A stretch of DNA of 64,000 nucleotides from Candidatus Marinacidobacterium sp. (GCA_965223075.1 OZ244986.1:3421630-3485629); one strand, 5' to 3'; positions 1,021 to 58,930 are shown, numbered from the stretch's first letter. A program made the numbers and translations. The notes: a model not told the origin generated them from the sequence alone.

Positions 1021-1241
1021 TAACAGCCTGTGGATAAAGTGACGTGAGCGCCGAGGCCCCCACCGGGAGAACTGGCGGTGAGGCGCCCGGCTGACAAGGC
1101 GCGTGAGGGAGGAATACCGAGTGTATTTCGACCGAAACGCAACGCAGAGCGACGCGAAGCGCCAGTTCTCCCGGTGGGGGGGCGGTTCAGCCGGGAGGCA
1201 TCGCCGGTCGAACGCCGCGTGACTTTGTCCACAGGTTGCTA
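1021..1241. mobile_element. MITE family A copy containing two 20-nt C units
   Basis: TA-ACAGCCTGTGGATAAAGT...ACTTTGTCCACAGGTTGC-TA termini; core GACAAGGCG...GGAGGAATACCGAGTGTATTTCGACCG shared with more than 10 other copies. Confidence 0.85.
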
Positions 1242-1479
1242 AGGAGTGGCCTCGACGCTTACGGCGGGGCAGGCGGACGCGGCGAAAACGGAGGGTCTGT
1301 CGGCCAAGACTGGGGATTCTGACGGATCACGCAGATGAATGGAGATCCACGCGCACCGGCAGCTCCGGCGGGCTCGTATTTCCAACCCGCCTGACGGTCC
1401 GGGCTGAAAAGGGAGCGCCGCTCTCCAGACTCAGACGGACTGTTGCTTACACTCTCCCGCGCTGTCCGGCCCACCCTCC

Positions 1480-2295
1480 ATGAAATTCCGAATGCGCGAC
1501 CTTGCCGGGATGGCCGACATGCAGGAATGCGAAGCCATCCAGAAGGAGGTCTGGGGCTTTTTCGAACTCGATGTGGTGCCTGCCGGCCTCTTCGCGGTCA
1601 TGGTCCACTACGGCGCCATCTCGGTCGGCGCCTTCGTCGGCGAGCGGATGGCGGGTTTCGTCAGCGGCTTTCCCGGGTTCGGACGCGGCGAGGCGTTTCA
1701 CCATTCCCACATGCTCGCGGTGCGGCCCGAGTTCCAGGGCCGCGGGATCGGGCTCGCCCTCAAGTGGGCGCAGGCCGACCGGGTGCTCGCCCAGGGCCTT
1801 CGTCGGATCAACTGGACCTTCGATCCACTGCAGGCGCGGAACGCGAACCTCAACATCAACCACCTCGGCGCCGTTTCGTCCGTTTACCGCCTGAATGTGT
1901 ACGGCGAGAGCCAGAGCCCGCTGCACGGCGGTATCCCGACGGATCGGCTGGAGCCGGAGTGGCGCGTCGGATCGGGGCGCGTCGAGCGCGCCCGGCGGGG
2001 CGAGTTGATCCCGCCCGCCGGGATTCCCGATCTGCCCCGGATCAACCGGATCTCGTTCCGTCCCGACGGTCTCCCCGAGAGCGACGATCCGGAGCAACCC
2101 CCCGATGACGAGGTCCTGCTCTTCGTTCCCGAGGACCTCAACGCGATCATGGCCAATGACCTCGCGCTCGCCATGGATTGGCGGCTGAAGTGCCGCGCTG
2201 CATTCACCGCGCTCTTCGAGCAGGGCTACGAGGTCTCGGGCTTCCACCGCGGCGGTCGGGAGGCGGCCTACCGCTTGCGCCGGCGTTCTCACTGA
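1480..2295 (+). CDS. GNAT-family acyltransferase
   Basis: HSHMLAVRPEFQGRGIGLALK motif A and WTFDPLQARNA motif. Confidence 0.85.
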   Translation: MKFRMRDLAGMADMQECEAIQKEVWGFFELDVVPAGLFAVMVHYGAISVGAFVGERMAGFVSGFPGFGRGEAFHHSHMLAVRPEFQGRGIGLALKWAQADRVLAQGLRRINWTFDPLQARNANLNINHLGAVSSVYRLNVYGESQSPLHGGIPTDRLEPEWRVGSGRVERARRGELIPPAGIPDLPRINRISFRPDGLPESDDPEQPPDDEVLLFVPEDLNAIMANDLALAMDWRLKCRAAFTALFEQGYEVSGFHRGGREAAYRLRRRSH

Positions 2296-2398
2296 GCGGA
2301 GACCGGAGATTCGGGCTTTCGCACGGGCGTATCATGGCCGAGCGATCGGTGCCCCCGCTCGGATCCACACGGAGGCAACGAGGAGGCCGGCCGCGAAG

Positions 2399-2854
2399 GT
2401 GCGGGTACTGAGCAATCCGAGAGTCCGCGGATACGAAGACGCCGTGAGAGTGGTGCGCAAGGAACTGGCGTCGCGCTACGGCTTTATGGATCTATGGCTG
2501 TTCTTCCCTGACGCTGATCAGGCCAGACCGCACGCCATGCAAGAGCTGGAGGAGGGTCTCAAGGCGCGGGGAGTCTCACTACTGTGTTGCCCTGCCGTTC
2601 CCGAGGTCGAGGTGTATGCCTGTGTGGCGTATCGCCAGGAAATTCGGATTCCGTGGCGCGATTTGCGCGTCCATCCGAGAATGAAGGAGACTTTTTTCGA
2701 CGAGGTGCTCGAGAAGCATGGCGATCCGCGCCAACCGGGTGGCGGAAGGCGGGACATGGCTGAGCGGTCGCTGGCGTCGCGGCGAGCGTTCTTCCAGCTC
2801 TGTCCGGAAATCGCTCAACTGCGGGAGCGGATTGCAGCTCATCTGGACGGCTGA
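2399..2854 (+). CDS. Hypothetical protein, probably N-terminally truncated (TOPRIM/RloB-like remnant?)
   Basis: 151-aa ORF with lower GC than neighbours; acidic FFPDAD and PEVEVY motifs; family assignment is inference. Confidence 0.45.
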   Translation: MRVLSNPRVRGYEDAVRVVRKELASRYGFMDLWLFFPDADQARPHAMQELEEGLKARGVSLLCCPAVPEVEVYACVAYRQEIRIPWRDLRVHPRMKETFFDEVLEKHGDPRQPGGGRRDMAERSLASRRAFFQLCPEIAQLRERIAAHLDG

Positions 2855-3651
2855 TCAGGCGCCTCTTTGGACCGAACGGCCCGCGTCCAGCGGGGCGGGC
2901 GCTTTTGGAGGAAGGCGCGCATCCCTTCCTGGGCATCCGGCTCGACTGCGTTGGCGCAGATCACCTCGGACATCGCCCGGTAGGCGTCCTCCACAGAGAG
3001 TTCCGCCTGCCGGTGGAAGGCGCGTTTTCCGAGAGCGACCACAGCGGGGCTCGCTTCGGCGATCCGCTCGGCGAACGCTTGGCTGGCCTGTTCGAGTTCG
3101 GCTTCGGGGGTGACGCGGTTCACGAGTCCCCATTCGAGGGCGGTTCTCGCGTCCACGAAGTCTCCGGTAAGAAGCATCTCCATCGCGCGTTTGCGGCCGA
3201 CAGAGCGGCTCACCGGAACCATCGGGGTGGAGCAGAAGAGCCCGATGCGGACGCCCGGGGTGGCGAAGCGAGCGGTCTCGGCGGCGACCGCCAGATCGCA
3301 GTTGGCGACGAGCTCGCAGCCGGCGGCGGTGGCGATGCCGCGCACCTCAGCGATCACCGGTTGCGGGAGGGCGCGGATGGTCTCCATCAGTTCGGAGGCG
3401 GCGGCGAAGACCCGGCGCTGCTCCGCAAGATCCTGCCCCACCATCTCGGCGAGGTAGTGGCCGGCGGAGAAGGCGGGTCCGGCGCCGGCCAGCACGATGG
3501 CCCGCGTCTCTTCCGCGGCGCTCGCCTCCCGCAGCCCTTCGGCAACGCGTTTCATCATGGCGACGGAGAGCGCATTGCGCTTCTCCGGCCAGCGCATTTC
3601 GACCCGGGCGGCGGGTCCCCGGCGGACGATTCCGACCTCAGCTTCCGGCAT
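2839..3651 (-). CDS. Enoyl-CoA hydratase/isomerase family protein
   Basis: PEKRNAL, AFSAGH, ATAAGCELVA, FATPGVRIGLFC and DAQEGMRAFLQKR crotonase motifs. Confidence 0.92.
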   Translation of the reverse strand: MPEAEVGIVRRGPAARVEMRWPEKRNALSVAMMKRVAEGLREASAAEETRAIVLAGAGPAFSAGHYLAEMVGQDLAEQRRVFAAASELMETIRALPQPVIAEVRGIATAAGCELVANCDLAVAAETARFATPGVRIGLFCSTPMVPVSRSVGRKRAMEMLLTGDFVDARTALEWGLVNRVTPEAELEQASQAFAERIAEASPAVVALGKRAFHRQAELSVEDAYRAMSEVICANAVEPDAQEGMRAFLQKRPPRWTRAVRSKEAPDQPSR

Positions 3652-5119: not shown

Positions 5120-5153
5120 GTTTCGATCCTATCCCAGCGCCCGGCGGGCGGTC

Positions 5154-7132: not shown

Positions 7133-7333
7133 GGCGATTTCTCGGTTGATTGTCGTGTTGTCGGGGGTGGCAAAGCGCCCGGCGCCTCGGTTCGGGCCCC
7201 GAAACGGGACAGGCACCATGGTAGCGGCCCGCGGGGCAGCAGGACTCCCGACCAGCGGGCGCTCCTTTCCATGACGCTCCCGGAGTGGGAACCTGGAAAC
7301 CGGTCCGGCTGCGAATGCAGGCCGGGGAGGCTT

Positions 7334-7573: not shown

Positions 7574-7590
7574 TTGAAGGGCGCGAATAC

Positions 7591-7955
7591 TAGCAGCCTG
7601 TGAACAAAGTCGTGCGGCCCAGTTGCTGTGAAAATGCAGTCCACTGGACGCCGAGAGCCGGGATGGCGCGTGGGTCAGGGAGCCCCCACCGGGAGAACTG
7701 GGCCGACCTTCTGGTCGGCACAGCGGCCCGTGGGGCCGCGGGCGGTTCATTGCCGTCCGCCTTCACGGGGCGCAGGCACGGAGCCCGCAGGCTGCGAACG
7801 GTGTCTGCCATTCCAATGTACGGATCACGCCGAACGCTGGGATTCCCGCCGAGAAGGGACCACCTCGGAACTGGGGGTCCTTCCCGCCGCCCGCCTTCGG
7901 CGGGCTGTGCCGGGCCCCACCGGGAGCACTGCCCAGAGGTCGGCGTTCCCGTGCC
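7591..7955. repeat. Composite repeat: MITE-A terminus plus family B modules plus two C units
   Basis: TAGCAGCCTGTG end; CCAGTTGCTGTGAAAA module; 7731-7913 is an inverted homolog of 41690-41870; C units at 7682 and 7914. Confidence 0.75.
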
Positions 7956-7978
7956 TGCGCCAAGTCGCGCGGCAGCGG

Positions 7979-9330
<1,352 letters not shown>

Positions 9331-9340
<10 letters not shown>

Positions 9341-9960: not shown

Positions 9961-10003
9961 GGGTCAGAAAGAGGAAGGCGGGCCCGGCGGCCCGAGACCG
10001 GGC

Positions 10004-11299: not shown

Positions 11300-11665
11300 C
11301 TGGGAGTCCCCACCGGGAGAACTGGGCCACGTTCCAAGCCATCCCCGCGCCTCTTCCGCTGCCCGGCGGCGTAGGGGTGCCTGTGCCTGGTGGGGTACGT
11401 GCCGAGAGGTGCGCGATCACGGAACTGGGAAGTACCCCGTCTCGCCCCGCTGCGCGGGGCGGTGCCGGTGTGAACACCGGCGTCCCCTGGCCGGCGCGGC
11501 ATCCAGGGCGGGGGAGGGGGCGGCACTCACGTTGGTATAGCGCGGTGTCATCGGCGCTGGTTTCGCGCTCCCGCGCGATGCCGGCCGGAGGCCGGCGTTC
11601 CAAGCCGTCCCCGCGCTTCTTCCGGTCGGGGCTCCCCAACCGGTGTTCCGGATCCGGTCCTGCCG
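11300..11665. repeat. Family B modular REP-like repeat
   Basis: Modules CCGGTGTGAACACCGG and CACTCACGTTGG...TGCCGGCCGGAGGCCGGCGTTCCAAGCC shared with other loci; C unit at 11306. Confidence 0.75.
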
Positions 11666-11869
11666 TACCAGCCTGTGGTGAAACCCGCGTGAGCGCCGAG
11701 GTGCGGGAAGCGCCCGGCTGACAAGGCGCGTGAGGGGAGGAATACCGAGTGTATTTCGACCGAAACGCAACGCAGAACACCAGTTCTCCCGGTGGGGGGG
11801 CGAAGCGGAGTGGTTCAGCCGGGATGCAGCCCGCGCCGAACGCCGCGTGGGTTTTGCCACAGGCTGGTA
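11666..11869. mobile_element. MITE family A copy inserted at TA within a family B end
   Basis: TA-CCAGCCTGTGG...CCACAGGCTGG-TA; removing it restores GATCCGGTCCTGCCGTACACCCCGCCTGG, similar to 43860-43888. Confidence 0.85.
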
Positions 11870-11911: not shown

Positions 11912-12694
11912 TCAGTCTTGGCGTTCGGCTTCTGATTCCGCTTCCGGCCGGAAGCTGGTGTCCGGAAGGTACCGGATGAGCCACTGCTCCGTCTGCGACA
12001 GAACGCCCGCGAGTTTCGCGGTGATTTCCATTGCACCCTGCGGGCCGAGAGCGCGGGCGAGCGGCGACCCCTGGTCGAGCGCGGCGAAGTTCCCGACATG
12101 AAAGAAGTGGACATACCCACTGTCACCGCCGAGAGTCAGCGCGCCCGAGGAGTGATGCATGTCCGCTTCCTTGAAATGCGGCAGTACGTCCTCGGCCATG
12201 ACCCGCAGGTAGTCCTGTTCACGGCCGGGGACGACGGAGACCAACTGGACCAGCGTCAGGGCCGGGTCCTCGTCGTCAGGGAGCGGGTTGTCGAGTTCGG
12301 ACGTCGTCCGGAGCGCATAGGTCCGGTGGCTGGTCACGGTCCGCTGGATGCGGTTCTCGATGCTCGCGCGGGCCGGATCAGGGCGCCCGGCCCGATCGAG
12401 CCGCGCGAAGTTGGCGAGCGGCGTCATGATCACAAAGCGGTAGGTATCGCCAAACGCCGCGGTCCGGCTGACGCTGCGCCACGGCACGTCCGCCGCTTTC
12501 TCGAGGGCCGACAGCTCGCGCTGCGCCGCCAGGAACTCGTCCACCTGGCCGGGTTTCACCCCGACGAGGGTCATTTCCATCCAGGGCGCCGCTTCCGGCG
12601 CATCCTGCGCCGGGGCCGCCGCCGGAAGGGCGCCGGCCAGCAGAAGCGCGGCCGGCGCCCAGCGCCCTGCCTTGGCGGCTAGGGCTGCTAACAC
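11912..12694 (-). CDS. Secreted hypothetical protein with two repeated alpha/beta (NIPSNAP/Dabb-like) halves
   Basis: Signal peptide; internal repeat VKPGQVDEF / VVPGREQDY and NFARLD / NFAALD; start overlaps ankyrin gene stop. Confidence 0.6.
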   Translation of the reverse strand: MLAALAAKAGRWAPAALLLAGALPAAAPAQDAPEAAPWMEMTLVGVKPGQVDEFLAAQRELSALEKAADVPWRSVSRTAAFGDTYRFVIMTPLANFARLDRAGRPDPARASIENRIQRTVTSHRTYALRTTSELDNPLPDDEDPALTLVQLVSVVPGREQDYLRVMAEDVLPHFKEADMHHSSGALTLGGDSGYVHFFHVGNFAALDQGSPLARALGPQGAMEITAKLAGVLSQTEQWLIRYLPDTSFRPEAESEAERQD

Positions 12695-14547
12695 GATACG
12701 CAGTTGTGGTTGTTCTTCGAGCCCAGGCTCTCCAGCAACGCCACGGTCGCGGGAATCGGCGACACCCGCTGTACCGGACCATTCGCCATGTCAGCCGTCG
12801 TCTGGCCGCGTCGGCTCACGGCGGTGACATCTCCTCCATTCTCGATCAGGTAGAGGATGAGTTCGTTGTCGCCGCGGGCGGCCGCGTGGTGGAGGGCGTT
12901 GTAGCCGTTGAAGTCCCGCTGGTTGATGTCGGCGCCCAGTTCGGCCAGGTACTGGACCGTCGCCAACCAGGCGTCCTGCACGTGACGATGCGCATTCCCC
13001 GCGAATCCCTCGCCGTAGCCAACCCCCGAGGCGGCGTGGATCGGATACACCCCCGGATCCCCGGCCTTGTACGGCGGGAGGCCCGACGGGTCAGGGCCCA
13101 TCGCGGTCAGATCCGTTGGGACCCACAGACCGGGCGCGGCCGGCAGCACCGAGAGGGCAGTGGGTTTGTTGTTCTCGGCAGTCGTCCCACCCCGGCGGCG
13201 GCGGGGCGCGGGCGCCGTGGTCGGAATGTTCGGATCGGCGCCGTGTTCCGCCAGCAGGCGCATCGCCGGCACGTCGGTCGCGTAGGCGGCCCGCCAGAAC
13301 GCGGTTGCGCCCGCGGTGTTCACGAGCCCGCAGTTGGCGTTGCCGCAGCCGCTATAGACCATGTACCAGGGATGCTTCTTGATCCGAACGTTCGGGTCCG
13401 CGCCGGCATCGAGTAGCGCCCGCATCACGTCCAGATAGTTCGCCTGCTGGAAACCGTGCTCCTGCGGTTGCGGAAACCGCGTCCGGGGCTGCCACTCGGC
13501 GTTGACGGCGGCCCATAGCGGGGTCACGCCATTCCCGCTGTCCGCGATATTGGGATCGGCGCCGCGCTCGAGGAGCAGGAGCGCCAGATCGAACTGTCCA
13601 TTGATCGTGGCCATCAGCAGCGGGCTGGTGCCGTCCCCTTCCGAGACCTGATTGATGTCGGCGTCGCCGTCGAGGAGCGCCGTCGCGGCGTCGTGGTACC
13701 CCTGCCGAACCGCGTGCAGCAGAGCCGTCATGCCGCCCTTGGCCTCCAGCTGCGGCCGGCGGAACCGGGCGAACGGGTCGTCGTCCTCACTGTCATCTTC
13801 GGGGGCCTCCCCGGACAGGTAGAGCTCGCGAGCCGCGAGCACTGCCGCCTGCACCTGGCTGGAAGTCGGTTCGGAGTCCCCTGCTGCGAACGCCTCCAGC
13901 ACCGCTCGTTGCCGCTTCTTGGCCGCCTCGGCCAACTCGTAATCGGCCACCAGGTCCACCTTCTTTGCAGTGGCCGCCGGGTCCGCTCCGCGCGCCAGCA
14001 GCGTCCGGATCGCATCCACGCGGTTGCGCGACGCCGCGAAGATCAGCGGCGTCTGTCCCCACGTCTTCTCCCGGGCGTCCACCGCGGCCCCGTGGTCGAT
14101 CAGCGCGGTGATCGCCGCGACGCTCCCGGAATTGGCGGCAAGGTGCAGCGGCGTCGCTCCGCTGGTGCTCGTGGCGGTCGCCGTGTCGGATCCCGCCGCG
14201 AGTAGCAATTCGACGACTTCCGCCTGGCCGGCGGCGCTCGCCACATGCAGCGGCATGTAGTTCCCGATGCGGGTGACCGCGTCCACGGTGGCGCCGCTCT
14301 GCAGCAGCGTTTCGACGAGTTCCGTGTCACCCCGCTCGGCAGCCCAGTGCAGGGCCGACATGCCGTCTCCGTGGGCGGCGTTGGCGTCCTCGCCCTGGGC
14401 AAGCAGGGCCCGTACCGCAGCGAGGTCACCGAGGCGCGCGGCATCGGCGACCGGGGCCGCCACGGGCGGCGCCGAGATCGCGCCGCCGGCTATCAGCAGC
14501 GTTGCGGCGACGGCGCACAGACGACTTGAAGTTCCTTTCAGGCGCAC
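12688..14547 (-). CDS. Secreted ankyrin-repeat protein
   Basis: Signal peptide; many G-x-TPLH/ALH-AA repeats; C-terminal NCVSC. Confidence 0.9.
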   Translation of the reverse strand: MRLKGTSSRLCAVAATLLIAGGAISAPPVAAPVADAARLGDLAAVRALLAQGEDANAAHGDGMSALHWAAERGDTELVETLLQSGATVDAVTRIGNYMPLHVASAAGQAEVVELLLAAGSDTATATSTSGATPLHLAANSGSVAAITALIDHGAAVDAREKTWGQTPLIFAASRNRVDAIRTLLARGADPAATAKKVDLVADYELAEAAKKRQRAVLEAFAAGDSEPTSSQVQAAVLAARELYLSGEAPEDDSEDDDPFARFRRPQLEAKGGMTALLHAVRQGYHDAATALLDGDADINQVSEGDGTSPLLMATINGQFDLALLLLERGADPNIADSGNGVTPLWAAVNAEWQPRTRFPQPQEHGFQQANYLDVMRALLDAGADPNVRIKKHPWYMVYSGCGNANCGLVNTAGATAFWRAAYATDVPAMRLLAEHGADPNIPTTAPAPRRRRGGTTAENNKPTALSVLPAAPGLWVPTDLTAMGPDPSGLPPYKAGDPGVYPIHAASGVGYGEGFAGNAHRHVQDAWLATVQYLAELGADINQRDFNGYNALHHAAARGDNELILYLIENGGDVTAVSRRGQTTADMANGPVQRVSPIPATVALLESLGSKNNHNCVSC

Positions 14548-21061: not shown

Positions 21062-21200
21062 GCAGTCGGCCACCGGGCGGGGACCGCCGGTCTTCAGACC
21101 GGCACCGCTGCGCGACAGCGCAGCGAAATCGCGTGCCACCAACCGAGAAGAAGCGCGGGGACGGCTTGGAACGCCGGCCTCCGGCCGGCATCGCGGTCCG
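21062..21200. repeat. Family B REP-like module
   Basis: AAGAAGCGCGGGGACGGCTTGGAACGCCGGCCTCCGGCCGGCATCGCG. Confidence 0.7.
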
Positions 21201-26003: not shown

Positions 26004-26163
26004 GGGGGAACCTCCTCGGGTTCACGAGCGGCCGGGTCGCAATGCGGAGAGCGCCGCAAGACTCCCCGCCACCATCTATTGACGGAATTCCCGGCGATTT
26101 CTTCTCACTGTGAAAGTCCGAGGGGTGTCACGGTTGTCGCTGCGCTGCGTGCTGCGATGCCGG

Positions 26164-26305
26164 TACCCACCGGGAGAAACCTCCATGATCGGGTCCTCCT
26201 GCACACCCCGCGGGTCCTGAAAGGCGTTCATCGAGGCTGGTTTCGCGCTCCCGCGCGATGCCGACCGGAGGTCGGCGTTCCAAGCCGTCCCCGCGCTTCT
26301 TCTCG
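26164..26305. repeat. Family B element (left end plus REP module)
   Basis: CCCACCGGGAGAAACCTCCATGATCGGGTCCTCC...TGCCGACCGGAGGTCGGCGTTCCAAGCC. Confidence 0.7.
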
Positions 26306-31559: not shown

Positions 31560-32399
31560 ATGCCCGAACCGAAGATTGCGTTTCAGGGATACCCCGGCTC
31601 GTACTCCGACCTGACCTGCCGGGACCGGTATCCGGATCATGAGCCGCTGGCCTGCGAGGGTTTTGAGGACACGTTCGCGGCAGTGGCGGAGGGGAGCGCG
31701 GAACTCGCGATGATCCCCATCGAGAATTCGGTGGCCGGACGAGTCGCTGACATCCATCACCTCCTGCCCGAATCCCGTCTGCAAATCGTCGGCGAAGCCT
31801 TTCACCGGGTGCGGCACCAGCTCCTTGGGCTGCCCGGAGCCACGCTCGGCGGACTCCGGACCGTCCACAGCCACCCGCACGCGCTCGCCCAGTGCCGGCA
31901 ATTCATCAGCAACCGACGCCTCCGCCCAGTGGCGGAGGCGGATACTGCCGGGGCCGCGATCCTGATCGCGAAAAGCGGAGACCCCACGAAGGCGGCGATC
32001 GCCTCGGCGCTTGCCGCCGGGATTCACGGGCTCTCGGTACTGGCGCCGGACATCGCGGACATCTCGCTGAACGTCACCCGCTTCCTCGTCATGGCCCGGG
32101 AGCCGGTTACGGTTCCGCGCGACGCCGACGCGATCACCACGTTCGTGTTCCAGGTGCGGAATCTCCCGGGCGCCCTCTACAAGGCGCTCGGCGGCTTCGC
32201 GACTAATGGAGTGAACATGCAGAAGCTCGAAAGCTACATGCTGGACGGCTCGTTCACCTCGACTCAGTTCTATTGTGACGTGGCTGGCCATCCCGAGCAC
32301 TCCGGGGTGGCGAAGGCGCTCGAAGAACTCCGCTTCTTCTCCCGGTCGGTCAGGATCCTGGGGGTCTATCCGGCCGACCCGATGCGCAGCTCCCGCTGA
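31560..32399 (+). CDS. pheA: Prephenate dehydratase
   Basis: IAFQGYPGSYS, PIENS, SHPHALAQC, NVTRF, ACT domain with KLES. Confidence 0.93.
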   Translation: MPEPKIAFQGYPGSYSDLTCRDRYPDHEPLACEGFEDTFAAVAEGSAELAMIPIENSVAGRVADIHHLLPESRLQIVGEAFHRVRHQLLGLPGATLGGLRTVHSHPHALAQCRQFISNRRLRPVAEADTAGAAILIAKSGDPTKAAIASALAAGIHGLSVLAPDIADISLNVTRFLVMAREPVTVPRDADAITTFVFQVRNLPGALYKALGGFATNGVNMQKLESYMLDGSFTSTQFYCDVAGHPEHSGVAKALEELRFFSRSVRILGVYPADPMRSSR

Positions 32400-32616
32400 C
32401 AGCCTGTGGAAGAGTGGCGTGAGCGCCGAGAGCGGCGAGGCCCAGTTCTCCCGGTGGGGGTCCGGCTGACAAGGCGCGCGAGGGAGGAGCCCCCACCGGG
32501 AGAACTGGCCCGGGTGTATTTCGACCGAAGCACAACGATGAGCGACGCGAAGCGGCGCGGTTCAGCCGGGATGGATCGCCGGTCGAACGCCGCGTGGGTT
32601 TTGCCACAGGCTGTTA
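32398..32616. mobile_element. MITE family A copy with two C units
   Basis: CAGCCTGTGG...CCACAGGCTGTTA; C units at 32442 and 32489. Confidence 0.85.
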
Positions 32617-32670
32617 ACGCTCGGGGCCGTGGGGGACACGGGTTTTGGAAGATGCAACGCCAGGGGTGAA

Positions 32671-34279: not shown

Positions 34280-34645
34280 TCCAGGGAACGCCGACCTCCG
34301 GCCAGTTGCTGCGAAAATGCAGTCGCGTCGGGACGCCCACAACCCGGATGGCGCGCTAGCCAGGGAACGCCGGCCAGTTCTCCCGGTGGGGGCTTCACAC
34401 CGGCACCGCTGCGCGCAGCGCAGCGAGATCGCGCATCGCCGACCGCGAAGAAGCGCGGGGACGGCTTGGAGCCCCCACCGGGAGAACTGGGCCGGCCTCC
34501 GGCCGGCATCGCGCGGGAAACCAGCGCCGAGGACACTGCGCCATGCCAACGTGAGTGCCGCACCCCTTCCAAGCACCGGATGCCGCGATCGCTCACCGCT
34601 CCCCCTACCCGCGGCCGCGCCTTTTTCATGACCGGCGGGGTGTTT
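34280..34645 (-). repeat. Near full-length family B element with two C units
   Basis: Same module order as 43836-44214 on the opposite strand, ending GCAACTGG; C units at 34374 and 34471. Confidence 0.75.
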
Positions 34646-36304: not shown

Positions 36305-36495
36305 GGTGCGGCACTCACGTTGGCATGGCGCCCTGTCATCGTCGCTGGCTTCGCGCTCCCGTGCGATGCCGGCCGGAGGCCGGCGTTCCAAGCCGTCTCC
36401 GCGCATCTTGGCGGTCGGCGGTACGCAGTTTCGCCCGCCTCCGGAGGGTGCCAGTCTGAAGGCCCCCATCGAGAGAACGGACCGGCGTTCCCGTG
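36305..36495. repeat. Family B module with degenerate C unit
   Basis: CACTCACGTTGG...GCCGGAGGCCGGCGTTCCAAGCC; GCCCCCATCGAGAGAACGG at 36462. Confidence 0.7.
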
Positions 36496-37689: not shown

Positions 37690-37930
37690 AGCGCTGAGCG
37701 GTCGCGCCATCCGAGGTCGGGAGAGGATGCAGAGCTCACGTTGGCATGGCGCAGCGTCATCGGCGCTGGTTTCGCGCTCCCGCGCGATGCCGACCGGAGG
37801 TCGGCGTTCCAAGCCGTCCCCGCGCTTCTTCTCGGTCGGCAGTACGCGGTTCCACCCCGCTGCGCGGGGCGATGCCGGTGTGAAGCCCCCACCGGGAGAA
37901 CTGGCCGGCGTTCCCGGGCCAGCGCCATCC
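37690..37930. repeat. Family B element with C unit
   Basis: REP module TGCCGACCGGAGGTCGGCGTTCC; C unit at 37885. Confidence 0.7.
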
Positions 37931-39056: not shown

Positions 39057-41006
39057 ATGCGCCACGTGGTGGTCGGCACCGCCGGCCACATCGATCACGG
39101 AAAGAGTTCGCTGGTCCTCGCGCTCACAGGGACCGATCCCGACCGCCTGAAGGAAGAAAAGGCTCGCGGCATCACCGTGGACCTCGGGTTCGCCCATCTC
39201 GAACACGAGGGAGTGACCTACGGCTTCGTGGATGTGCCGGGCCACGAGCGCTTCGTGCGCAACATGCTCGCCGGCGCGTCCGGTTTCGACGTGGTGCTGC
39301 TGGTGGTGGCCGCCGACGAATCCGTCATGCCCCAGACCCGCGAGCACATCGAGATCTGCCGGCTGCTTGGGGTGCGGTCCGCCGTGGTGGCGCTCACCCG
39401 GATTGATCTCGTGGAGGATCGGGAGTTCATCGAGATTGCGGCGCTCGAAGTCCGCGAGCTGCTCGAGGGGTCGGCGATGGCCGGGGCGCCGCTCGTGCCC
39501 GTCTCGTCGAAGACCGGCGAGGGACTCGGTGAACTCAGGGAGGCGCTCGCGGCAGCGGCAGGCGCCGCCGGGCCCCGGGACGTCTCGGGTCTCTTCCGGC
39601 TGCCGGTGGACCGCGCCTTCACCATGCGCGGCTTCGGCGCGGTGGTCACCGGCACGCTCGCCGCCGGCCGGGTCAAGGTCGGGAGCGACGTGGAAATCCT
39701 CCCCGGAGGCGAGCGCGCCCGGGTCCGGGGCCTCCAGGTACACGGAGCCCCCGTCGAGGCGGCTCAGGCCGGCCAGCGGGTCGCTGTCAACCTCTCCGGA
39801 GCCGGCCGCTTCCGGGTTGAGCGGGGGTCGGTGATCGCGGCGCCCGGCGAACTGAGTGCCACCCGGATGGTGGACGCCCGGTTGGAGGTGCTGGCCTGGG
39901 CGGCCGGGCCGGTCAAGGACGAGGACCGGGTGCACCTGCATGTCGGGACCGCTACCTCGCTTGCCCGGGTCCGGCTTCTCGGCGGGTTGGCGCAGCTCGC
40001 TCCCGGAGATTCCGGCCTCGTGCAGTTGCGCCTGGAGACCCCGTTGACGGCGGTGCGCGGCGATCGATTCATCATCCGGCGTTATTCGCCGGTCATCACC
40101 ATCGGCGGTGGGACGATCCTGGATGCGCTGCCCCCCAAACGCTCTCCGAAAAACCCGGCGGCTCGTGACCGGGTCCTTGCCCTCGATCGCGCGACCGATG
40201 CGCGCGCCGCAGCCGCGTTCGTGGACGAGGCGGGAGTTCGGGGTCTGAGCGAGGCGGTGCTGCGCCGCAGACTCGGGATCCCGGCGCAGGATGCGGCACG
40301 GGTGTTTGGGGAACTCATCGAACGGGGCGAGATCGAAGCGCTGGGGGACGGCGCTCCGGCCAGCGCGGGTGGACGGGTCCTCTTGGCGCCGTCCAGTCTG
40401 CGAGCCGTGCAGGACCGGATCACCTCGCTGCTCTCCGCCTGGGAAACCGAAAACCGGCTGCGCGCCGGCATGCCGGTGGAACAACTCCGGGAACAGACCG
40501 GCGTTCCCGCGGTGGTGGCGGACGGCGCTCTGGCGCGTCTCGCAAGCGCCGGCGCCCTCGAACTCACCCGCCACACGGTCGGCACCGTAGGCCGGCAGGT
40601 CCAGCTCCGGGATGCCGAGCGGCGCGCCCTCGACCGTCTGGCAGGGTTACTCGACGAGGGCGGATTCACTCCGCCGACTCTCGGGGAAGCGGCGGAGGAA
40701 CTCGGGGTTCCGCCGGAACTCGTGGATGCCCTGCGACGGCTGCTGCTTCGGGAAGGGCGCGCCGTGGACGTAAGTCCTGACCTCTACTTCGATGCTGGCC
40801 GGCTCGCCGCGCTCCGCCGGGCGGTGGCGGAACGGGCCGCCGTGAATCCCGAGATCGATGTTGCCTGGTTCAAGCAGAACTTCGGCCTGAGCCGCAAACA
40901 CGCGATTCCGCTGCTCGAGTGGCTCGACCGCGAGCGGGTGACGGTGCGGGTGGGGAACCTGCGGAAGATCCGAACCGGCGCGGCGCCGGGAGTTGCCCCC
41001 GCATGA
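39057..41006 (+). CDS. selB: Selenocysteine-specific elongation factor
   Basis: [29 protein letters not shown]-terminal winged helix [15 protein letters not shown]. Confidence 0.95.
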
Positions 41007-41653
41007 ACCAGTGGGTCGCCGATCTGCGCTTCGCGATCCGCTCGCTGCGCAGCCGTCCGCTCCTGACCGGGCTCGCGGCGGCTTCGCTCGCGCTCGCCAT
41101 CGCCGGGAACGGCGCGCAGTTTTCCTTCATGAACGCCTTGCTGCTGCGGCCGATGCCCTATCCGGATCCGGAGCGCGTGGTCATGCTCTGGCAGACCGAT
41201 CCGGCGAACCCGGCGATCGATCTGATCCCCGTGGCGTCGGCCAACTACGACGACTGGCGGCGGACCGCCGAGTCCTTCGAGGTGCTCGCCGCGCAGCGCA
41301 TCCGCCCGATGAGCATCACGGGGGGCGACCTGCCGGAGCCGGTCAGCGGCGCCGAAGTGACCGCGGAGTTCTTCCCGCTGCTCGGCGCCCGCCTGCACCT
41401 CGGGCGGGTGTTCCGGCCGGAAGAGGCGGAGGCCGGTCTGCGGCTCGCCGTCCTGTCCCATTTTCACTGGCAGAACCGGTGGGGAGGCGATCCGGCTCTG
41501 GTGGGCGGGCAGATCGAACTGGAGGGCGAGCCGCACGAGGTCGTCGGCGTGCTCGAGGAAGGATTCGAGTTCCTGCAGGCCGGGGTTGCGGTGTGGACGC
41601 CGATGGACAGCCCGCCGAAGGCGGGCGGAACTGCGTATCGCCGACTGAGTTGA
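41003..41653 (+). pseudogene. Truncated ADOP/MacB-like ABC permease
   Basis: DLRFAIRSL...LALAIAGN...LLRPMPYPDPERVV N-terminus; ends after about 205 aa in a repeat. Confidence 0.75.
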
Positions 41654-42202
41654 AGCGCGAGGACGGCTTGGAACGCCGGCCTCCGGCCGGCACAGCCCGC
41701 CGAAGGCGGGCGGCGGGAAGGACTCCCCGTTCCGAGGTGGCGCCGTCCCGGCGGGAATCTCAGCGTTCGGCGGGATCCGTACCTGGGAGTGGCAGACACC
41801 GTTGGTCACAGTGCGGGCCACGTGCTTGCGTTCCGTGAAGGCGGACGGCAAGGAACCGCCCGCGGCCCTGGGGGTCGTTGTGTCGAGTCCCACCGGCAAG
41901 AACCCGCATGATCGGGTCCTCCGCACACCCCGCCAGGAAGAAAATGGGCGGCACTCACGCTGGCCTGGCGCCGCGTCATCCTCCCTGGTTTCGCGCTCCC
42001 GCGCGTGCCGGCCGGAGGCCGGCCCCATTCTCCCGGTGGGGGCTCCAAGCCGTCCCTGCCATGGCACCGTCGGCTTCTGCGCCCTCTCACCTGTTGGGGG
42101 TACGTGCCGAGACGGGAGCCATCCCGGCGATTTGGGGTCTTCGCCGCCGCGGCCCTGCGGGCCGCTGTGCCGGCCGGAGGCCGGCGTTCCAAGCCGTCCC
42201 CG
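41612..42202. repeat. Family B mosaic repeat cluster
   Basis: REP hairpins at 41670, 42006, 42168; long left end at 41887; C unit at 42024. Confidence 0.75.
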
Positions 42203-43741: not shown

Positions 43742-43835
43742 TAGCAGCCTGTGGACAAAGTGGCGTGCGCGCCGAGAGCGGCCAGTCCTCCCGGTGGGGG
43801 CGAGGCACGCGGCTGACAAGGCGCGCGAGGGAGGA
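43742..43835. mobile_element. Partial MITE family A with C unit
   Basis: TAGCAGCCTGTGGACAAAGT left half, C at 43782, cut at GGGAGGA by the family B left end. Confidence 0.75.
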
Positions 43836-44214
43836 GCCCCCACCCGGAGAAACCATCATGATCGGGTCCTCCAATACACCCCGCCTGGCATGAAAAAAGG
43901 CGCGGCCGCGGGTAGGGTGAGCGGTCGCGGCATCCGGGACTGGAAGAGGGTGCGGAACTCAAGTTGGCAGAGCGCCGTGTCATCGGCGCTGGTTTCGCGC
44001 TCCCGCGCGATGCCGACCGGAGGTCGGCGTTCCCTGGCCAGCGTGCCCCTCTGCCGGGTGGGGTAGGTACCGAGACGTGCGCCATCGCGGAACTGGGAAG
44101 TACGCCCTTTCGCCCCGCTGCGCGGGGCGGTGCCGGTGTGAACACCGGCGGTCCCTGACCGGCGGCGCCATCCGGATCGTTGGCGTACCTTTGGGACGTG
44201 CACTTACACGGCAA
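43836..44214 (+). repeat. Full-length family B element
   Basis: Begins GCCCCCACCCGGAGAAACC, ends GGGACGTGCACTTACACGGCAA (degenerate form of GGGACTGCCTTTTCATAGCAACTGG). Confidence 0.7.
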
Positions 44215-51646: not shown

Positions 51647-51665
51647 TCGCAAGGAAATCCGGTAA

Positions 51666-53140: not shown

Positions 53141-53322
53141 CAGCCGGTGGCAAAACCCACGCGGCGTTCGACGGGCGATGCATCCCGTCTGAACCGCCCC
53201 GCTCCGCGGGGCTCTCAGTTGCGCTTCGGTCGAAATACACCCGGTATTCCTCCCTCGCGCGCCTTGTCAGCCGGGCGCCTCGCCCGTCTCGGCGCTCACG
53301 TGGGTTTCACCACCGACTGCTA
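53138..53322. mobile_element. MITE family A copy (reverse)
   Basis: TA-GCAGCCGGTGG...CCACCGACTGC-TA; conserved core. Confidence 0.85.
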
Positions 53323-53338
53323 GCATCCTTGAACTCCT

Positions 53339-54724: not shown

Positions 54725-55320
54725 GCGCCGAGAGCGGCGAGGCCCAGTTCTCCCGGTGGGGCCAGTTCTCCCGGTGGGGGCCCGGCTGACAAGGCGCGCG
54801 AGGGAGGAATACCTGGTGTATTTCGACCGAAGCGCAACGAAGAGCGTCGCGAAGCGACGCGGTTGACAGTCGGTGGTGGAACCCACGTGAGCGCCGAGGC
54901 CGGCCAGTCCTCCCGGTGGGGGCGAGGCGCCCGGCTGACAAGGCGCGTGAGGGAGGAATACCTGGTGTATTTCGACCGAAGCGCAACGATGAGCGGCGCG
55001 AAGCGACGCGGTTCAGCCGGGATGGATCGCCGGCCGAACGCCGCGTGGGTTTCGCCACAGGCTGTTAACAGCCTGTGGAGAAAGTGACGTGAGCACCGAG
55101 AACGGTGAGGCGCCCGGCTGACAAGGCGCGTAAGGGAGGAATACCGGGTGTATTCCGACCGAAACGCAACGATGAGGGCCGCGCAGCGGCCCGTTTCAGC
55201 CGGGATGCATCGCCGTTCGAATGCCGCGTGACTTTTTCCACAGGCTGTTAAGCCGGGATACATCGCCGGTCGAGCCCCCACCGGGAGAACTGGGCCGCGT
55301 GACTCTGTCTACCGGCTGCT
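54698..55320. mobile_element. Nested stack of three family A MITEs with four C units
   Basis: Outer copy (54698-54865 plus 55251-55320, matching GACAGAGT inverted repeats) split by copies at 54866-55067 and 55066-55250. Confidence 0.8.
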
Positions 55321-55358
55321 GAGAAAGCCGGGCGCTCCGGGCCGGTAGAATCCCGGAC

Positions 55359-55736
55359 GGTTCGAGTCGTTCAGACGGTCGCCGGCTCCTTCGGGAGCGG
55401 GAGGAAAGTCCGAACTCCGCAAGGCAGTGCGCTGGGTAACCCCCAGTCCGGGTGACCGGAAGGAAAGTGCCACAGAAAACAAACCGCCTCTCCCTCCGGG
55501 GAGCGGCAAGGGTGAAAAGGTGCGGTAAGAGCGCACCGCCTGGGCAGTGATGTCCAGGGCACGGTAAACCCCGCATGGAGCAAGACCAAATAGAGAAGCA
55601 CCCGAGGGCCGCCTGTCCGAGCTTCCGGGTAGGTCGCTTGACCCGTCGGGTAACCGCCGGGCTAGATGCATGACCGTCACCTCGCCGCGGGCAACCGCGC
55701 CGGGGAACAGAATTCGGCTTACGAGCGGCTCGGACC
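55359..55736 (+). ncRNA. rnpB: RNase P RNA (type A)
   Basis: GAGGAAAGTCCGAACTC, GGAAAGTGCCACAGAAA, GGTAAACCCC...GAGCAAG, ACAGAATTCGGCTTA; P1 pairing; TAGAAT -10 at 55346. Confidence 0.97.
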
Positions 55737-55745
55737 CTCGGAGCG

Positions 55746-56313
55746 CCGGCCAGTTGCTATGAAAAGGCAGTCCCGCCGGGACGCCGATAGCCGGGATGGC
55801 GCGCCGACCAGGGAACGCCGGTGTTCACACCGGCACCGCCCCGCGCAGCGGGGCGAGAGGGCGTATTTCCCGGTTCCGGGATGGTGCACGTCTCGGCGCA
55901 TACCCCACCCGGCAGAGGGGCGCGCCGGCCAGGGAACGCCGACCTCCGGTCCGCACCGCGCGCCGAGAGGCGCGCGATACATCGCTGAGGGAGAAGAGGC
56001 GCGGGGACGGCTTGGAACGCCGACCTCCGGCCAGTTGCTATGAAAAGGCAGTCCCGCCGGGACGCCGATAGCCGGGATGGCGCGCCGACCAGGGAACGCC
56101 GGTGTTCACACCGGCACCGCCCCGCGCAGCGGGGCGAGAGGGCGTACTTCCCGGTTCCGGGATGGTGCACGTCTCGGCGCATACCCCACCCGGCAGAGGG
56201 GCGCGCCGGCCAGGGAACGCCGACCTCCGGTCCGCACCGCGCGCCGAGAGGCGCGCGATACATCGCTGAGGGAGAAGAGGCGCGGGGACGGCTTGGAACG
56301 CCGACCTCCGGCC
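55746..56313. repeat. 281-bp near-perfect tandem duplication of a family B segment, followed by a C unit
   Basis: 55746-56026 repeated at 56027-56307; one mismatch seen by eye. Confidence 0.9.
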
Positions 56314-56455
56314 GGTTCTCCCGGTGGGGGCCTCCGACCGGAAACGCTCCCGGCAGGGGAGCGAAACTCATGGGCGGCCGTTCCCGGGTAATGGCGCTGC
56401 ATTCGTTCCGGCCGGGGTCTCCGGTCTCGCCCCGCTGCGCGACCGGCCGGCCAGC

Positions 56456-57415
56456 GTGATTCTGGTCACCGGCGGTGCCGGGTTCATCGGCTCCGCGCTG
56501 GCAACCCGGCTCGCCGGCGCCGGCGAGCGGGTCCGGGTTCTCGATGATTTCTCGACGGGCCGGCGCGAACGCGTCTCCGGGAACCCATTGGTCGAGGTGT
56601 GCGAAGGAGACATTCGGGACTCTGCCGCGGTCCGGGAGGCTCTCGCCGGTGTGAACCGGGTCGCTCACCTGGCGGCGCTGGCCTCGGTGCCCCGCGCCGA
56701 GTTGGACCCGGAAACCGCGGCGCGGGTGAACGTCGAAGGGACCCTCGTGGTGCTCGACGAGTCCAGGCGGGCCGGCGTCTCCGCCCTGGTGTACGCCTCG
56801 TCCTGTTCGGTCTACGGTGACGTCGGCGAACGCCCGATCGTGGAATCCGTCCCTCTGAGGCCCTGTTCGGTGTACGCAGTAACGAAACTGGCCGGAGAGC
56901 GGCACGTCCTCCTGTATCACCGCACCGGAGGGCCGTCAGCCATCGCGTTGCGCTTCTTCAACGTCTACGGGCCGGGCCAGCCGGCCGACTCTCCCTATTC
57001 CGGCGTCCTCGCCCGGTTCACCGTGCAGGCGACCGGCGGCGAGCGGCCCGAGATTCATGGCGACGGCGGGCAGACCCGGGATTTCGTGTTTGTGGGCGAC
57101 GTGGTGGACGCCCTGGTCTTCGCCCTTGAAAAGGCTCCGCAGGAGCCTGGGGGACAGGCTTTCAACGTCGGAACCGGGCGGGCCGCCTCGGTAGGCGAGA
57201 TCTGGGCGCTGGTCGCCAAAGCCGCCAGGGTGGAAGTGACCCCGACATTCGGTCCGGTCCGGGCCGGTGACATGCGCCACGCCTCGGCGGACACCCGAAG
57301 GGCTGCGGAGCTCCTGGGTTTTCGTGCCCGGGTCCCGCTGGAGGCGGGGATTCGGGAGCTGTTGGAGGCCTCCGCGGGGAACCTCGCGGCTACTCCGCGC
57401 GTTCCGCGGGCATAG
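56456..57415 (+). CDS. NAD-dependent epimerase/dehydratase
   Basis: VTGGAGFIGS, YAVTK (YxxxK), LRFFNVYGP, TRDFVFV. Confidence 0.92.
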   Translation: MILVTGGAGFIGSALATRLAGAGERVRVLDDFSTGRRERVSGNPLVEVCEGDIRDSAAVREALAGVNRVAHLAALASVPRAELDPETAARVNVEGTLVVLDESRRAGVSALVYASSCSVYGDVGERPIVESVPLRPCSVYAVTKLAGERHVLLYHRTGGPSAIALRFFNVYGPGQPADSPYSGVLARFTVQATGGERPEIHGDGGQTRDFVFVGDVVDALVFALEKAPQEPGGQAFNVGTGRAASVGEIWALVAKAARVEVTPTFGPVRAGDMRHASADTRRAAELLGFRARVPLEAGIRELLEASAGNLAATPRVPRA

Positions 57416-57423
57416 GCCTTGGT

Positions 57424-58764
57424 GTGTCATACTCAAGAATTCTCGGCGTGACCCCTCGGCCAGCCCCCCATCTCGCCTCGGCGACCGCGGTACTTGGCGG
57501 TCTTCTTGGGGGCGTCGTGTTGTTCGGAGCCGGGGTTCTCCGGTCCTGGGACGGCCCGCTGCCGGAGCCGCCCGGGATGCCCGCCCCAGACGAGTCCGTG
57601 GTTTCCGAGCAGCCGGAGGTGGGCCTGTTTCTGGTTCCGGACCGGTTCGTCCGCGGGGACTCACTGTCAGACGTGCTCGTGCGAAACGGCTTTTCGCGGA
57701 GGGAAGTCGGCGCCGTTGCCGAGGCGTTGACCCCGGTCGCCGATGTCCGGCGGCTCAAGGTCGGGCAGACGTTGTGGTTGCACCGGAACGAGGGCGGCGA
57801 GCCCGTCAGGATCGAACTTCCGCTCGACGATTTCCGCGAGGTGGCGGTGTTCCGCGCCGGGACCGGCTGGGATGCCCGCGAGTTCACTGCCGAGCCGCTT
57901 GACCGGCGCGAGGTGGTTCAGGGGGTGGTGAATAGCAGTCTGTACCAAAGTCTGGTGCGTTCCGGCGAACGGGGTGACCTGGCGGTTCTGATCGCGAGAG
58001 CCCTCGAGTACGACATCGACTTCCACCGCGACACGCGGGTTGGAGACAGTTACTCGGTAGTCGTGGACAAGCTCTATGACGATCAGGGCGAGTGGAAGGA
58101 CTACGGCGAATTGCATGCCGTCCGCTACCTCAATGCCGGCCGCCCCATCCACGCGTTCCGCTTCGAATTGCCGACCGGCGAATCGGGCTACTACGACTAT
58201 GACGGCAATTCCATTCAGCGCGTCTTCCTGATGAGTCCCGTGGCCTACACCCGCATTTCGGGAGTCTTCACCAGTCGGCGGCTTCACCCGATACACCGGG
58301 TGTACCGACCGCACTACGGCGTGGACTACGTGGCCGCGCGAGGCACTCCGGTGATGGCGACGGCGGACGGGGTGGTTGCGGACGCGGGGAGCCGCGGCCC
58401 GAATGGGAAGATGGTCACGCTTCGCCATGCGGGTGGCTACGTCACCAAGTACCTCCATCTCTCCCGCATTCCGTCCGAAATCGGCCCCGGGCGTCGCGTG
58501 AACCAGCGGGATGTCATCGGGTTTGTTGGTTCCACGGGCGTCTCGACCGGCGCCCATCTTGACTATCGCCTTTCGCGCCACGGGAGACCCTTGAACTCCC
58601 GCACCCACATCCTGCCGCCGGGGCCCCCCATTCCGGCAGAGCATCTGGTTCTGTTCGAGGCGTGGCGAGACGAGCTGGTGGGTTCCTTCGAGCGGCCCGA
58701 AGGCCGTCCTCTCATGCGGACTCCGGTGTCCAGAACCGTGGCCGGCGCGAGCGACGGCTCCTGA
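57424..58764 (+). CDS. M23 family peptidoglycan DD-endopeptidase (MepM-like)
   Basis: HYGVD (HxxxD), YLHL, STGAHLDY; N-terminal TM. Confidence 0.9.
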   Translation: MSYSRILGVTPRPAPHLASATAVLGGLLGGVVLFGAGVLRSWDGPLPEPPGMPAPDESVVSEQPEVGLFLVPDRFVRGDSLSDVLVRNGFSRREVGAVAEALTPVADVRRLKVGQTLWLHRNEGGEPVRIELPLDDFREVAVFRAGTGWDAREFTAEPLDRREVVQGVVNSSLYQSLVRSGERGDLAVLIARALEYDIDFHRDTRVGDSYSVVVDKLYDDQGEWKDYGELHAVRYLNAGRPIHAFRFELPTGESGYYDYDGNSIQRVFLMSPVAYTRISGVFTSRRLHPIHRVYRPHYGVDYVAARGTPVMATADGVVADAGSRGPNGKMVTLRHAGGYVTKYLHLSRIPSEIGPGRRVNQRDVIGFVGSTGVSTGAHLDYRLSRHGRPLNSRTHILPPGPPIPAEHLVLFEAWRDELVGSFERPEGRPLMRTPVSRTVAGASDGS

Positions 58765-58769
58765 AGCGT

Positions 58770-58930
58770 TAACAGCCTGTGGCAAAACCCACGCGGCGTT
58801 CGACCGGCGATGCATCCCGGCTGAAACGCACCGATGAGCGGCGCGCAGCGACGCGGTTCAGCCGGGATGGATCGCCGGCCGAGCCCCCACTGGGAGAACT
58901 GGGCCGCCCCGGTTTCATCACAGGCTGTTA
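58770..58930. mobile_element. Rearranged family A MITE (two right halves, inverted) with C unit
   Basis: TAACAGCCTGTGG...CACAGGCTGTTA; lacks the left core; C at 58883. Confidence 0.75.

Follow-up and report, generated by a model that had tools for sequence, protein, structure and literature searches.

Introduction

Neisseria genomes contain several hundred copies of dRS3, a unit of 20 bp which is embedded among other repeats and serves as an integration site for an IS110/Piv-type recombinase. dRS3 has inverted termini, and neither in-frame inserts in genes nor the replacement of two target nucleotides (nt) is known to be part of its description. In Nostoc and relatives, small dispersed repeats (SDRs) of 21–27 nt are reportedly nested within each other as well as within other repeats and insert-like at orthologous sites, with no known mobilising enzyme, and several of them are said to be able to form hairpins. 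To our knowledge, a link of SDRs to IS110 targeting has not been described, and the mobilisation of very small dispersed repeats has never been explained. Here, we analysed a 64,000-nt stretch of a Candidatus Marinacidobacterium genome (GCA_965223075.1 OZ244986.1:3421630-3485629; 'the window'), in which a 20-nt unit, designated U, is repeatedly inserted into other repeats. U is predicted to be the empty target site of ISx, a bridge-RNA element of the IS110 family of insertion sequences (ISs), a link that is newly found here.

Repetitive extragenic palindromic (REP) sequences are described in PMC3116915 as short, very abundant and mostly extragenic, and as targets of IS elements. IS110 elements that target repeats are known as well, and solo ssr9 modules have been described for ISPpu9. 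For IS621, PMC11208158 gives the left target guide of the bridge RNA as the top-strand sequence left of the core, and places the left donor guide ~73 nt downstream. Excision of IS110 elements, according to Xie et al. 2026 and Sun et al. 2025, needs the donor arms alone and releases a single-strand circle, and insertion often takes place beside a sequence matching one donor arm, including half-match sites for the left donor only (Xie et al. 2026).

Results

U is a sharply bounded, insert-like unit

The genome from which the window derives (G000) consists of one contig with 4,195,189 bases and 67.3% G+C. U reads GCCCCCACCGGGAGAACTGG and has 19 matches in the window when up to three mismatches are allowed, where shuffling leads one to expect 0.05 and none of 100 window shuffles reached this number. 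Genome-wide there are 377 exact copies, rising to 636, 713 and 759 with up to one, two and three mismatches, respectively. They are divided equally between the strands, and no replichore or strand bias was detected in G000. The boundaries of U are sharp: alignment of the 713 copies together with their flanks yielded 1.5–1.97 bits at positions 1–19 and 1.1 bits at position 0 (G in 583, C in 85 and A in 42 copies), as compared to at most 0.9 bits in the flanks, where a preference for C/G is visible only in the four bases 3' of the unit. The start of U varies with the site (GC, CC, AC or GG) and its final two nt are constant. U does not form a hairpin (DNA fold −1.4 and −1.9 kcal/mol, z-scores 0.45 and −0.10), it has two dissimilar ends without terminal inverted repeats (TIRs), and it is not accompanied by a target-site duplication, empty sites showing replacement instead. 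No series of truncated copies, 5'-truncated ones included, was seen in G000. Rfam scanning of the window returned RNase P RNA and two tRNAs only, and a literature search, which left out supplementary files, retrieved no published description of U.

U is a real, discrete unit that behaves as an insert. Defining an empty relative as a place where both flanks of a U copy stand close together, we found at least one such relative for 418 of the 713 copies, and the window itself holds nine examples for each of two host sites, in agreement with a preliminary description made from the window sequence alone. Replacement lengths were scored on 128 flank classes by pairing a filled copy with its closest empty relative. 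U had replaced two target nt in 91 classes, one in 28, three in four and none in two, the remaining three being odd; the net gain is usually 18 nt, with 17, 19 or 20 nt in some cases. These filled/empty comparisons bear out the earlier view of a discrete, sequence-defined insert that typically adds 18 nt and generates no target duplication, and they qualify its rule of a 2-nt replacement, which is the mode and not universal. The earlier list of copies was reproduced at 19 of its 20 coordinates (with 7913 for 7914), the twentieth, at 36462–36481, being a decayed copy with four mismatches. The earlier estimate of about ten host positions was too low, as filled/empty alignments reveal at least 17 that are clearly different. 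At least seven of these lie within a single miniature inverted-repeat transposable element (MITE) of ~210 nt with TIRs, MITE-A (TTAACAGCCTGTGGA...TCCACAGGCTGTTAA), and several others are located in or beside REP hairpins. U is inserted in either orientation, and its target preference is weak. The overlapping pair noted previously at 54744–54781 turned out to be one of 30 head-to-tail pairs in the genome, all of which are spaced by exactly 18 nt and share GG, so that the second copy begins with GG and not with GC.

The statement that no copy lies in coding sequence does not hold genome-wide. In the gene for the Lhr helicase, recognized by its Pfam domains, U sits in frame between two winged-helix domains. 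Here, the empty form ...CTGGCGG[cg]CCCGCTG... is converted by 20 nt replacing cg, which adds 18 nt, that is six codons. Comparison of six species revealed this copy in G000, G004 and G001 and its absence in G013, G008 and G003. Since the two most distant species are empty, the copy in Lhr represents a gain within the genus. U is also found in the same reading frame (PPPGEL) in two more genes of G000 (C1:1573994 and 2153242), in linker-like stretches. The copy at 1573994 is present in G000 and G004, the linker being too variable elsewhere for an empty site to be defined.

IS110-family elements are predicted to enter U

In many places only the initial 16 nt of U are present, and ACCCCCATGATCGGGTCC... 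stands where CTGG would be expected. These longer elements, referred to as M, occupy the same host positions as U and end with ...TTTCACAGCAA-CTGG, after which the host sequence continues. A sequence resembling the left part of U (U-left) precedes ~90 of 101 M-type left ends, and an M right end precedes three of them via a single AA; ACTGG followed by varied host flanks stands after ~55 of 71 M right ends. M1 elements are non-coding, ~250–500 nt long and variable, with other repeats nested within, while M2 is non-coding, has a length of 305 nt and is represented by four near-identical copies in U at three host contexts.

Two identical autonomous copies, designated ISx, are present in G000, both outside the window (C1:3779383-3781137 and ~2480170-2481925). 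ISx comprises a left end as in M, a non-coding stretch of ~320 nt, a frame for a protein of 419 aa and the right end ...CACCGC-AA, followed by CTGG. M2 is an internally deleted ISx in which the non-coding region and both ends are kept. The protein contains the domains DEDD_Tnp_IS110 (PF01548, 2.4e-22) and Transposase_20 (PF02371, 4.1e-21), and its best matches in the PDB are the transposases of IS621 and ISCro4. ISx, M1 and M2 lack TIRs; their ends differ, and an AA core stands on either side (GAG-AA-[ACCC...AGC]-AA-CTGG). By every feature testable here, ISx is an ordinary member of the IS110 family. Both ISx copies are located directly behind an M1, with the junction CACAGC-AA-ACCCTC and without the outer parts of U. 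Because of this junction, the element has to be equated with the interior rather than with the composite, AA with the core and U with the entry site GCCCCCACCGGGAG-AA-CTGG. Junctions of the type right end-core-left end (CACAGC-AA-ACCC) were observed three times, all of them in chromosomal tandems. Inside ISx, U and its complement are matched by 7-mers only. Rfam searches with three U-M composites gave one sub-threshold chance match, and no Rfam family was obtained for M2. Among the family genomes searched, the ISx lineage (at least 60% identity) occurs only in G000, G004 and G001, and ISx or its target could already stand in catalogues of IS110 elements (supplements of Durrant et al. 2024).

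A second IS110 lineage is present in G004 with two copies in U, GCCC-CC/TATAGGATC...CATGGAGAGT/CC-ACCGGGAGAACTGG, its CC core coinciding with U positions 4–5. U is thus a target for at least two IS110 lineages with two different cores. In G018, two of three copies of an IS110 element lie ~45 nt from a U and not inside it. The preliminary description had placed the responsible enzyme outside the window, and an IS110 recombinase tied to U is indeed encoded elsewhere; U is its target and not its demonstrated product.

Some further observations concern the same elements. Another IS110 type of G000 (437-aa frame, 7–8 copies, e.g. reverse near 1733000-1736000) enters the REP hairpin loop GCCGACCGGAGGTC/GGC, so that at least three IS110 lineages in G000 each have a repeat target of their own. 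In 47 of 93 M-type left ends (e.g. window 26163–26230), GGGAG of U, an 8-nt spacer and ATG open an 11-codon frame (MIGSSCTPRRA), resembling a ribosome-binding site with a mini open reading frame at the left end of M1. A long coding frame starting from this ATG was considered and rejected: 47 of the 93 stop at 11 codons and the others extend by chance, and no coding version came to light in this way. One reverse-strand M1 of G000, with 1,059 nt between its ends, contains a tandem array of about eight ~130-nt units, each built around a REP hairpin.

Predicted guide segments co-vary with the flanks

Guides of the putative bridge RNA were read from the aligned non-coding regions of seven elements, namely ISx of G000 (two copies), G004 and G001 and three M2. 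The 5' region contains two segments of the form NNNNN-AA-AN ~75 nt apart, a spacing like that between the left target guide and the left donor guide of IS621 (PMC11208158). Five of the elements have GGGAG-AA of U on their left, and in these guide 1 is GGAG-AA. It is CAGC-AA in the two ISx copies of G000, which are preceded by the M1 right end CACAGC-AA. As for guide 2, it is ATAGC-AA in M2, which has CATAGC-AA as its own right end, and CACAGG-AA in ISx of G004 and G001, whose own right end is likewise CACAGG-AA. In ISx of G000, guide 2 is CACAGC-AA, the own right end being CACCGC-AA and that of M1 CACAGC-AA. A bridge RNA would be expected to show just such co-variation of its guides with the flanks. 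The match of guide 1 (CAGC-AA) to the M1 right end would explain why the ISx copies sit behind M1, and since M elements at degenerate sites retain GGAG-AA only, ISx presumably reads the right half of U. A candidate right target guide, CCGGTT, was less consistent and is not relied on. The switch of guide 1 in ISx of G000 has the appearance of a natural retargeting of the predicted bridge RNA onto the element's own non-coding relative.

Distribution of U and its probable spread with host repeats

In a survey of 41 genomes at up to one mismatch, U was found in 21. Each of the 15 further species examined in the genus holds between 9 and 1,497 copies, and U is also found in five of nine genomes from other genera of the family. 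It is thus present in 20 of the 24 other family genomes overall, and was not detected in 16 genomes from two other families of the order, one of which (G033) is unpublished. Copy numbers reach 1,497 in G013, 721 in G004, 244 in G018 and 56 in the one-contig genome G019. Where a genome has a single copy, this copy is at a familiar host position, and the same positions recur across genera, e.g. GAGGA/U in G020 and CCGAG/U in G003 (a slash marks the junction). Among the database matches listed, U-bearing records belong to Vicinamibacteria, 'Candidatus Marinacidobacterium' and metagenome-assembled genomes (MAGs) of Acidobacteria, and one short contig is labelled Gammaproteobacteria. Contigs from public short reads (four runs from four studies) agree with the unique parts at 99–100% identity, e.g. 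without any difference over a 1,464-nt piece. U forms loose contig ends in two of the four runs, from separate studies; these contigs break in repeats and are uninformative on presence or absence of single copies. Given its occurrence in about half of the genomes surveyed (21 of 41), in MAGs of several depositors and in contigs of two runs from separate studies, U is not an adapter or assembly artefact, an alternative raised in the preliminary description.

Both flanks are repeated sequences for 462 of the 713 copies and one flank for 208; in the case of 43 copies both flanks are unique, and many of these correspond to solitary REP hairpins. Along the block that is syntenic with the window, species differ by the presence or absence of entire MITEs or REPs, and the copies of U number 19, 25 and 45. 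Host repeats differ at most loci between the window and G004 and G013, leaving few U sites that can be compared. Most of the ~760 copies of U probably arose passively as their host MITEs and REPs were copied. A TIR-bearing MITE at window 32390–32620 is flanked by the same pair of genes in G000, G004 and G013, but in G000 it is inverted relative to the other two genomes and differs from them in where it carries U. In G004 it is neighboured by an element whose protein, as read by eye, resembles an IS630-type transposase.

Primary insertion of U and competing explanations

The following mechanism may account for these data. ISx and its derivatives M1 and M2 insert into U between GCCCCCACCGGGAG-AA and CTGG, with AA on both sides. 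One segment of the 5' RNA region spells the left flank plus core, and the second segment spells the element's own right end plus core. A second IS110 lineage, present in a sister species, uses a CC core in U. Most U copies would have spread as passengers of MITEs and REP units. Beyond this, U has come to occupy no fewer than 17 host positions, as well as some unique sites, each time as a discrete unit that took the place of one to three target nt. It may have served here as a minimal donor, with a GG core in addition to 16 nt, and its mobilising element may no longer be present. We give this explanation as a whole, in which U is a family-wide dispersed 20-nt module that acts as attachment site of bridge-RNA-guided IS110 elements, about an even chance of being correct. 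That U was itself inserted by an IS110-type recombinase, through conservative recombination around a 2-nt core, is a tentative proposal and rather less than an even bet. The U pairs sharing GG are built like the tandems in which ISx follows M1 and AA is shared, and a donor made of two arms plus core is conceivable because IS110 excision needs only the donor arms and insertion often occurs beside half-matches (Xie et al. 2026; Sun et al. 2025). It is doubtful whether U can be regarded as the smallest mobile DNA yet seen, 18–20 nt in size and moved by cut-and-paste as a unit, perhaps handled by a bridge recombinase via its donor arms alone as a single-strand micro-circle and seeding landing pads for IS110 elements.

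Several observations weigh against these proposals. IS110 elements do not explain the presence of U: at a domain threshold of E ≤ 1e-10, only nine of the 24 other family genomes contain an IS110 domain, yet 20 hold U. Eleven family genomes including G019 have U without an IS110 domain match, where draft MAGs may have lost repeats, and G013, with most copies of U, has a single match. ISx, ISz, the REP-loop type and the IS110 elements of G018 have ends other than those of U. An element with the ends of U (GCCCCCACC... and ...GAGAACTGG) was not found in G000, nor in the other genomes, which were not searched exhaustively, and none of 18 stray right 11-mers of U in G000 is near the 10 IS110 genes. 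Exchange at a core predicts that the target dinucleotide is kept at one junction, whereas GC...GG stands in place of the target dinucleotide regardless of whether this was ac, at, ca, aa or cg, and net gains other than 18 nt (17, 19 or 20 nt) are found as well. As to passive spread with host repeats, filled copies did not cluster in a tree of 63 of the 75 near-full-length MITE-A copies (out of 350 chains), calculated without control for resolution: the 10 copies filled at GGAGGA need 10 changes, not fewer than with shuffled labels (mean 9.5).

U might instead have been inserted by break repair or an unrecognised host enzyme, through a short staggered cut made by a nuclease at which 1–3 nt are lost and a ready-made U piece of 18–20 nt is joined or copied in, so that the junctions would not be set by a recombinase. 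Such a process agrees with replacement of 0, 1, 2 or 3 nt, with a target dinucleotide kept at neither junction, with a weak target consensus and with the presence of U in genomes lacking IS110, RAYT (REP-associated tyrosine transposase) or reverse transcriptase matches. However, it leaves unexplained why the ends of U are identical at every site without a truncated series and why the same 2-nt replacement recurs in 91 of 128 flank classes, and no source of free U pieces is known. We regard this explanation as unlikely. Alternatively, U could be immobile now, with a few ancient insertions or an ancestral module being carried along by host repeats and differences in copies reflecting loss and recombination among these. 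Identical host positions in different genera (GAGGA/U in G020 and CCGAG/U in G003) are compatible with this idea, as are the prevalence of repeated contexts and the turnover of whole host repeats between species. At least 17 host positions, 43 copies with two unique flanks, the gain of U by Lhr within the genus and the lack of clustering of filled copies on the MITE-A tree (which had no resolution control) speak against it, and we regard it as distinctly improbable.

The remaining alternatives can be dismissed with more confidence. If the initial 16 nt and the final 4 nt of any U-plus-M composite are put together, they give U, and solo U shares its host positions with the composites, as would be expected of an excision scar or of the joined ends of longer elements. 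Nevertheless, an IS110 element that has ends of its own makes up the interior, tandems are joined via AA without the outer U, the predicted guides read U as target, and U is present where IS110 was not found. A footprint, as considered in the preliminary description, is not to be expected of IS110 elements, which on excision either restore their site or leave an intact donor behind (Xie et al. 2026; Sun et al. 2025), and the chance that U is a scar appears very small. Movement of U as a REP-like unit by a RAYT, i.e. an HUH Y1 transposase, has an even slimmer chance. There is a RAYT-like gene in G000, and REP hairpins contain or adjoin several of the U sites, but this gene is flanked by ordinary REP hairpins with no U copies around it, U does not fold, and Y1_Tnp matches were absent from G013, G004, G018 and G019, which have 1,497, 721, 244 and 56 copies of U, respectively. 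The RAYT origin suggested earlier was abandoned, since U neither tracks such genes nor forms a hairpin. The other enzyme suggested there, a reverse transcriptase writing U from a short RNA template, is the least credible source: the tandem 18-nt period could recall repeated copying of such a template, but RVT_1 searches gave no candidate in G000 and a match in only two of the 15 other genus genomes, and 5'-truncated copies of U are missing.

Features of the window

Copies of U and related features are compiled in Table 1.

Table 1. Copies of U, M-type ends and examples of empty host sites in the window (a slash marks the junction with U)
Feature	Position	Strand	Site or context
U copy, exact	1056..1075	+	CCGAG/U/CGGTG in TIR MITE (MITE-A)
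U copy, 1 mismatch, CC start	1162..1181	-	AACCGC/U/CGCTT
U copy, exact	7682..7701	+	CAGGGA/U/GCCGACC; REP hairpin 2 nt downstream
U copy, 3 mismatches	7913..7932	+	within REP 5' arm, GTGCCG/U/CCAGAGG
U copy, 1 mismatch	11306..11325	+	
U copy, 1 mismatch, CC start	11780..11799	-	CTTCGC/U/TGTTC
U copy, 1 mismatch, AC start	32442..32461	-	MITE-A site CAGCCGG/U/GCCTCGCC; same locus empty (gc) in G004 and G013
U copy, exact	32489..32508	+	MITE-A site GGAGGA/U/CCCGGGTG; also filled in G004 and G013
U copy, exact	34374..34393	-	in place of 'ca' of REP 3' arm, GTGTGAA/U/CCGGCG
U copy, exact	34471..34490	+	CTTGGA/U/GCCGGCC
Decayed U copy, 4 mismatches	36462..36481	+	read by eye; outside the matches at up to 3 mismatches
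U copy, exact	37885..37904	+	GTGTGAA/U/CCGGCG
U copy, 2 mismatches	42024..42043	-	CTTGGA/U/GCCGGCC
U copy, 1 mismatch	43782..43801	-	GTGCCTC/U/CCGCTCTC
Head-to-tail U pair	54744..54781	-	18 nt spacing, GG in common, second copy starts GG
U copy, 1 mismatch	54904..54923	-	
U copy, exact	55274..55293	+	GGTCGA/U/GCCGCGTG
U copy, 1 mismatch	56312..56331	-	
U copy, 1 mismatch	58883..58902	+	entire host MITE absent at locus in G004 and G013
U-left (GTACCCACCGGGAG-AA), then M1-type left end (ACCTCCATGATCGG...)	26163..26192	+	right end not located
U-left (GCCCCCACCCGGAG-AA), then M1-type left end	43836..43865	+	host site GGAGGA/
Degenerate U-left and M-type left end	41886..41915	+	inside ~590-nt repeat family
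M1-type right end ...GCATTTTCACAGC-AA-CTGG	7619..7637	-	attR-like junction with right part of U
M1-type right end with AA-CTGG	34302..34320	-	
M1-type right end, variant CATAGC-AA-CTGG	55750..55768	-	
M1-type right end, variant CATAGC-AA-CTGG	56031..56049	-	
Empty host site, example GGCTTGGA[ac]GCCGGCC	21163..21179	+	n=9 in window
Empty host site, example GAGGGAGGA[at]ACCGAGTGTA	1105..1125	+	n=9 in window

At two places (37875–37914 and 34364–34403), U replaces 'ca' of a REP 3' arm; as CACCGG within U can pair with the REP 5' arm, a hairpin is kept there. The ~590-nt repeat family (window ~41610–42200 and ~20 other places in G000) contains a degenerate U-left and an M left end in the middle of the repeat. 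The densest repeat cluster of the window centres on the RNase P RNA gene (55363–55736, 309 bits), where G000 has five U copies within 1.8 kb, G004 none and G013 five. The window further encodes an ankyrin-repeat protein (12688–14547, minus strand), for which ankyrin effector models gave only sub-threshold matches, and the selenocysteine elongation factor SelB (39057–41006, plus strand; 328 bits, above the cut-off).

Discussion

If the proposed relationship between U and ISx is true, it provides a natural system in which guides, targets and non-coding derivatives of bridge RNAs can be read straight from genomes. In this system, a change of guide from GGAG to CAGC goes along with a change in the place of insertion, and a single unit contains the two cores used by two IS110 lineages. 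It would also offer a clean case of a 20-nt unit entering other repeats and, in frame, a helicase gene. The enzyme behind U would show the lower size limit of mobile DNA and the origin of IS110 target repeats. Were U indeed a micro-donor, the IS110 parasite and its target site would propagate each other.

ISx resembles IS621, ISPpu9 and ISPpu10 in its two IS110 domains, the absence of inverted ends, the 2-nt core on both sides and a 5' non-coding region with two guide-like segments, one for the target and one for the donor. With known IS110 elements it also shares tandems beside a matching donor arm and a highly repeated short target, and the solo non-coding M2 recalls the solo ssr9 modules of ISPpu9. 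However, ISPpu9 and ISPpu10 target palindromic REPs, whereas the target of ISx does not fold and is itself insert-like. The core is AA in ISx and CC in the second lineage, in place of CT, and these two cores are found in one 20-nt unit.

U itself is neither a REP, a MITE nor an IS end. Like REPs and REPINs (REP doublets forming hairpins), it is a short, abundant and mostly extragenic IS target, but it forms neither hairpin nor doublet, does not track RAYT genes and lies inside REPs and MITEs. MITEs are likewise short, non-autonomous and present in high copy number, whereas U has no TIRs, causes no target duplication and, with 20 nt, is far below their sizes. The nearest described counterparts of U appear to be the cyanobacterial SDRs and the dRS3 unit of Neisseria. 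U is a dispersed, nested and insert-like unit of 20 nt and may in this respect resemble the SDRs of Nostoc, from which it differs in phylum and sequence. It lacks the inverted termini of dRS3, and both are units of ~20 nt that act as integration sites of IS110-type elements.

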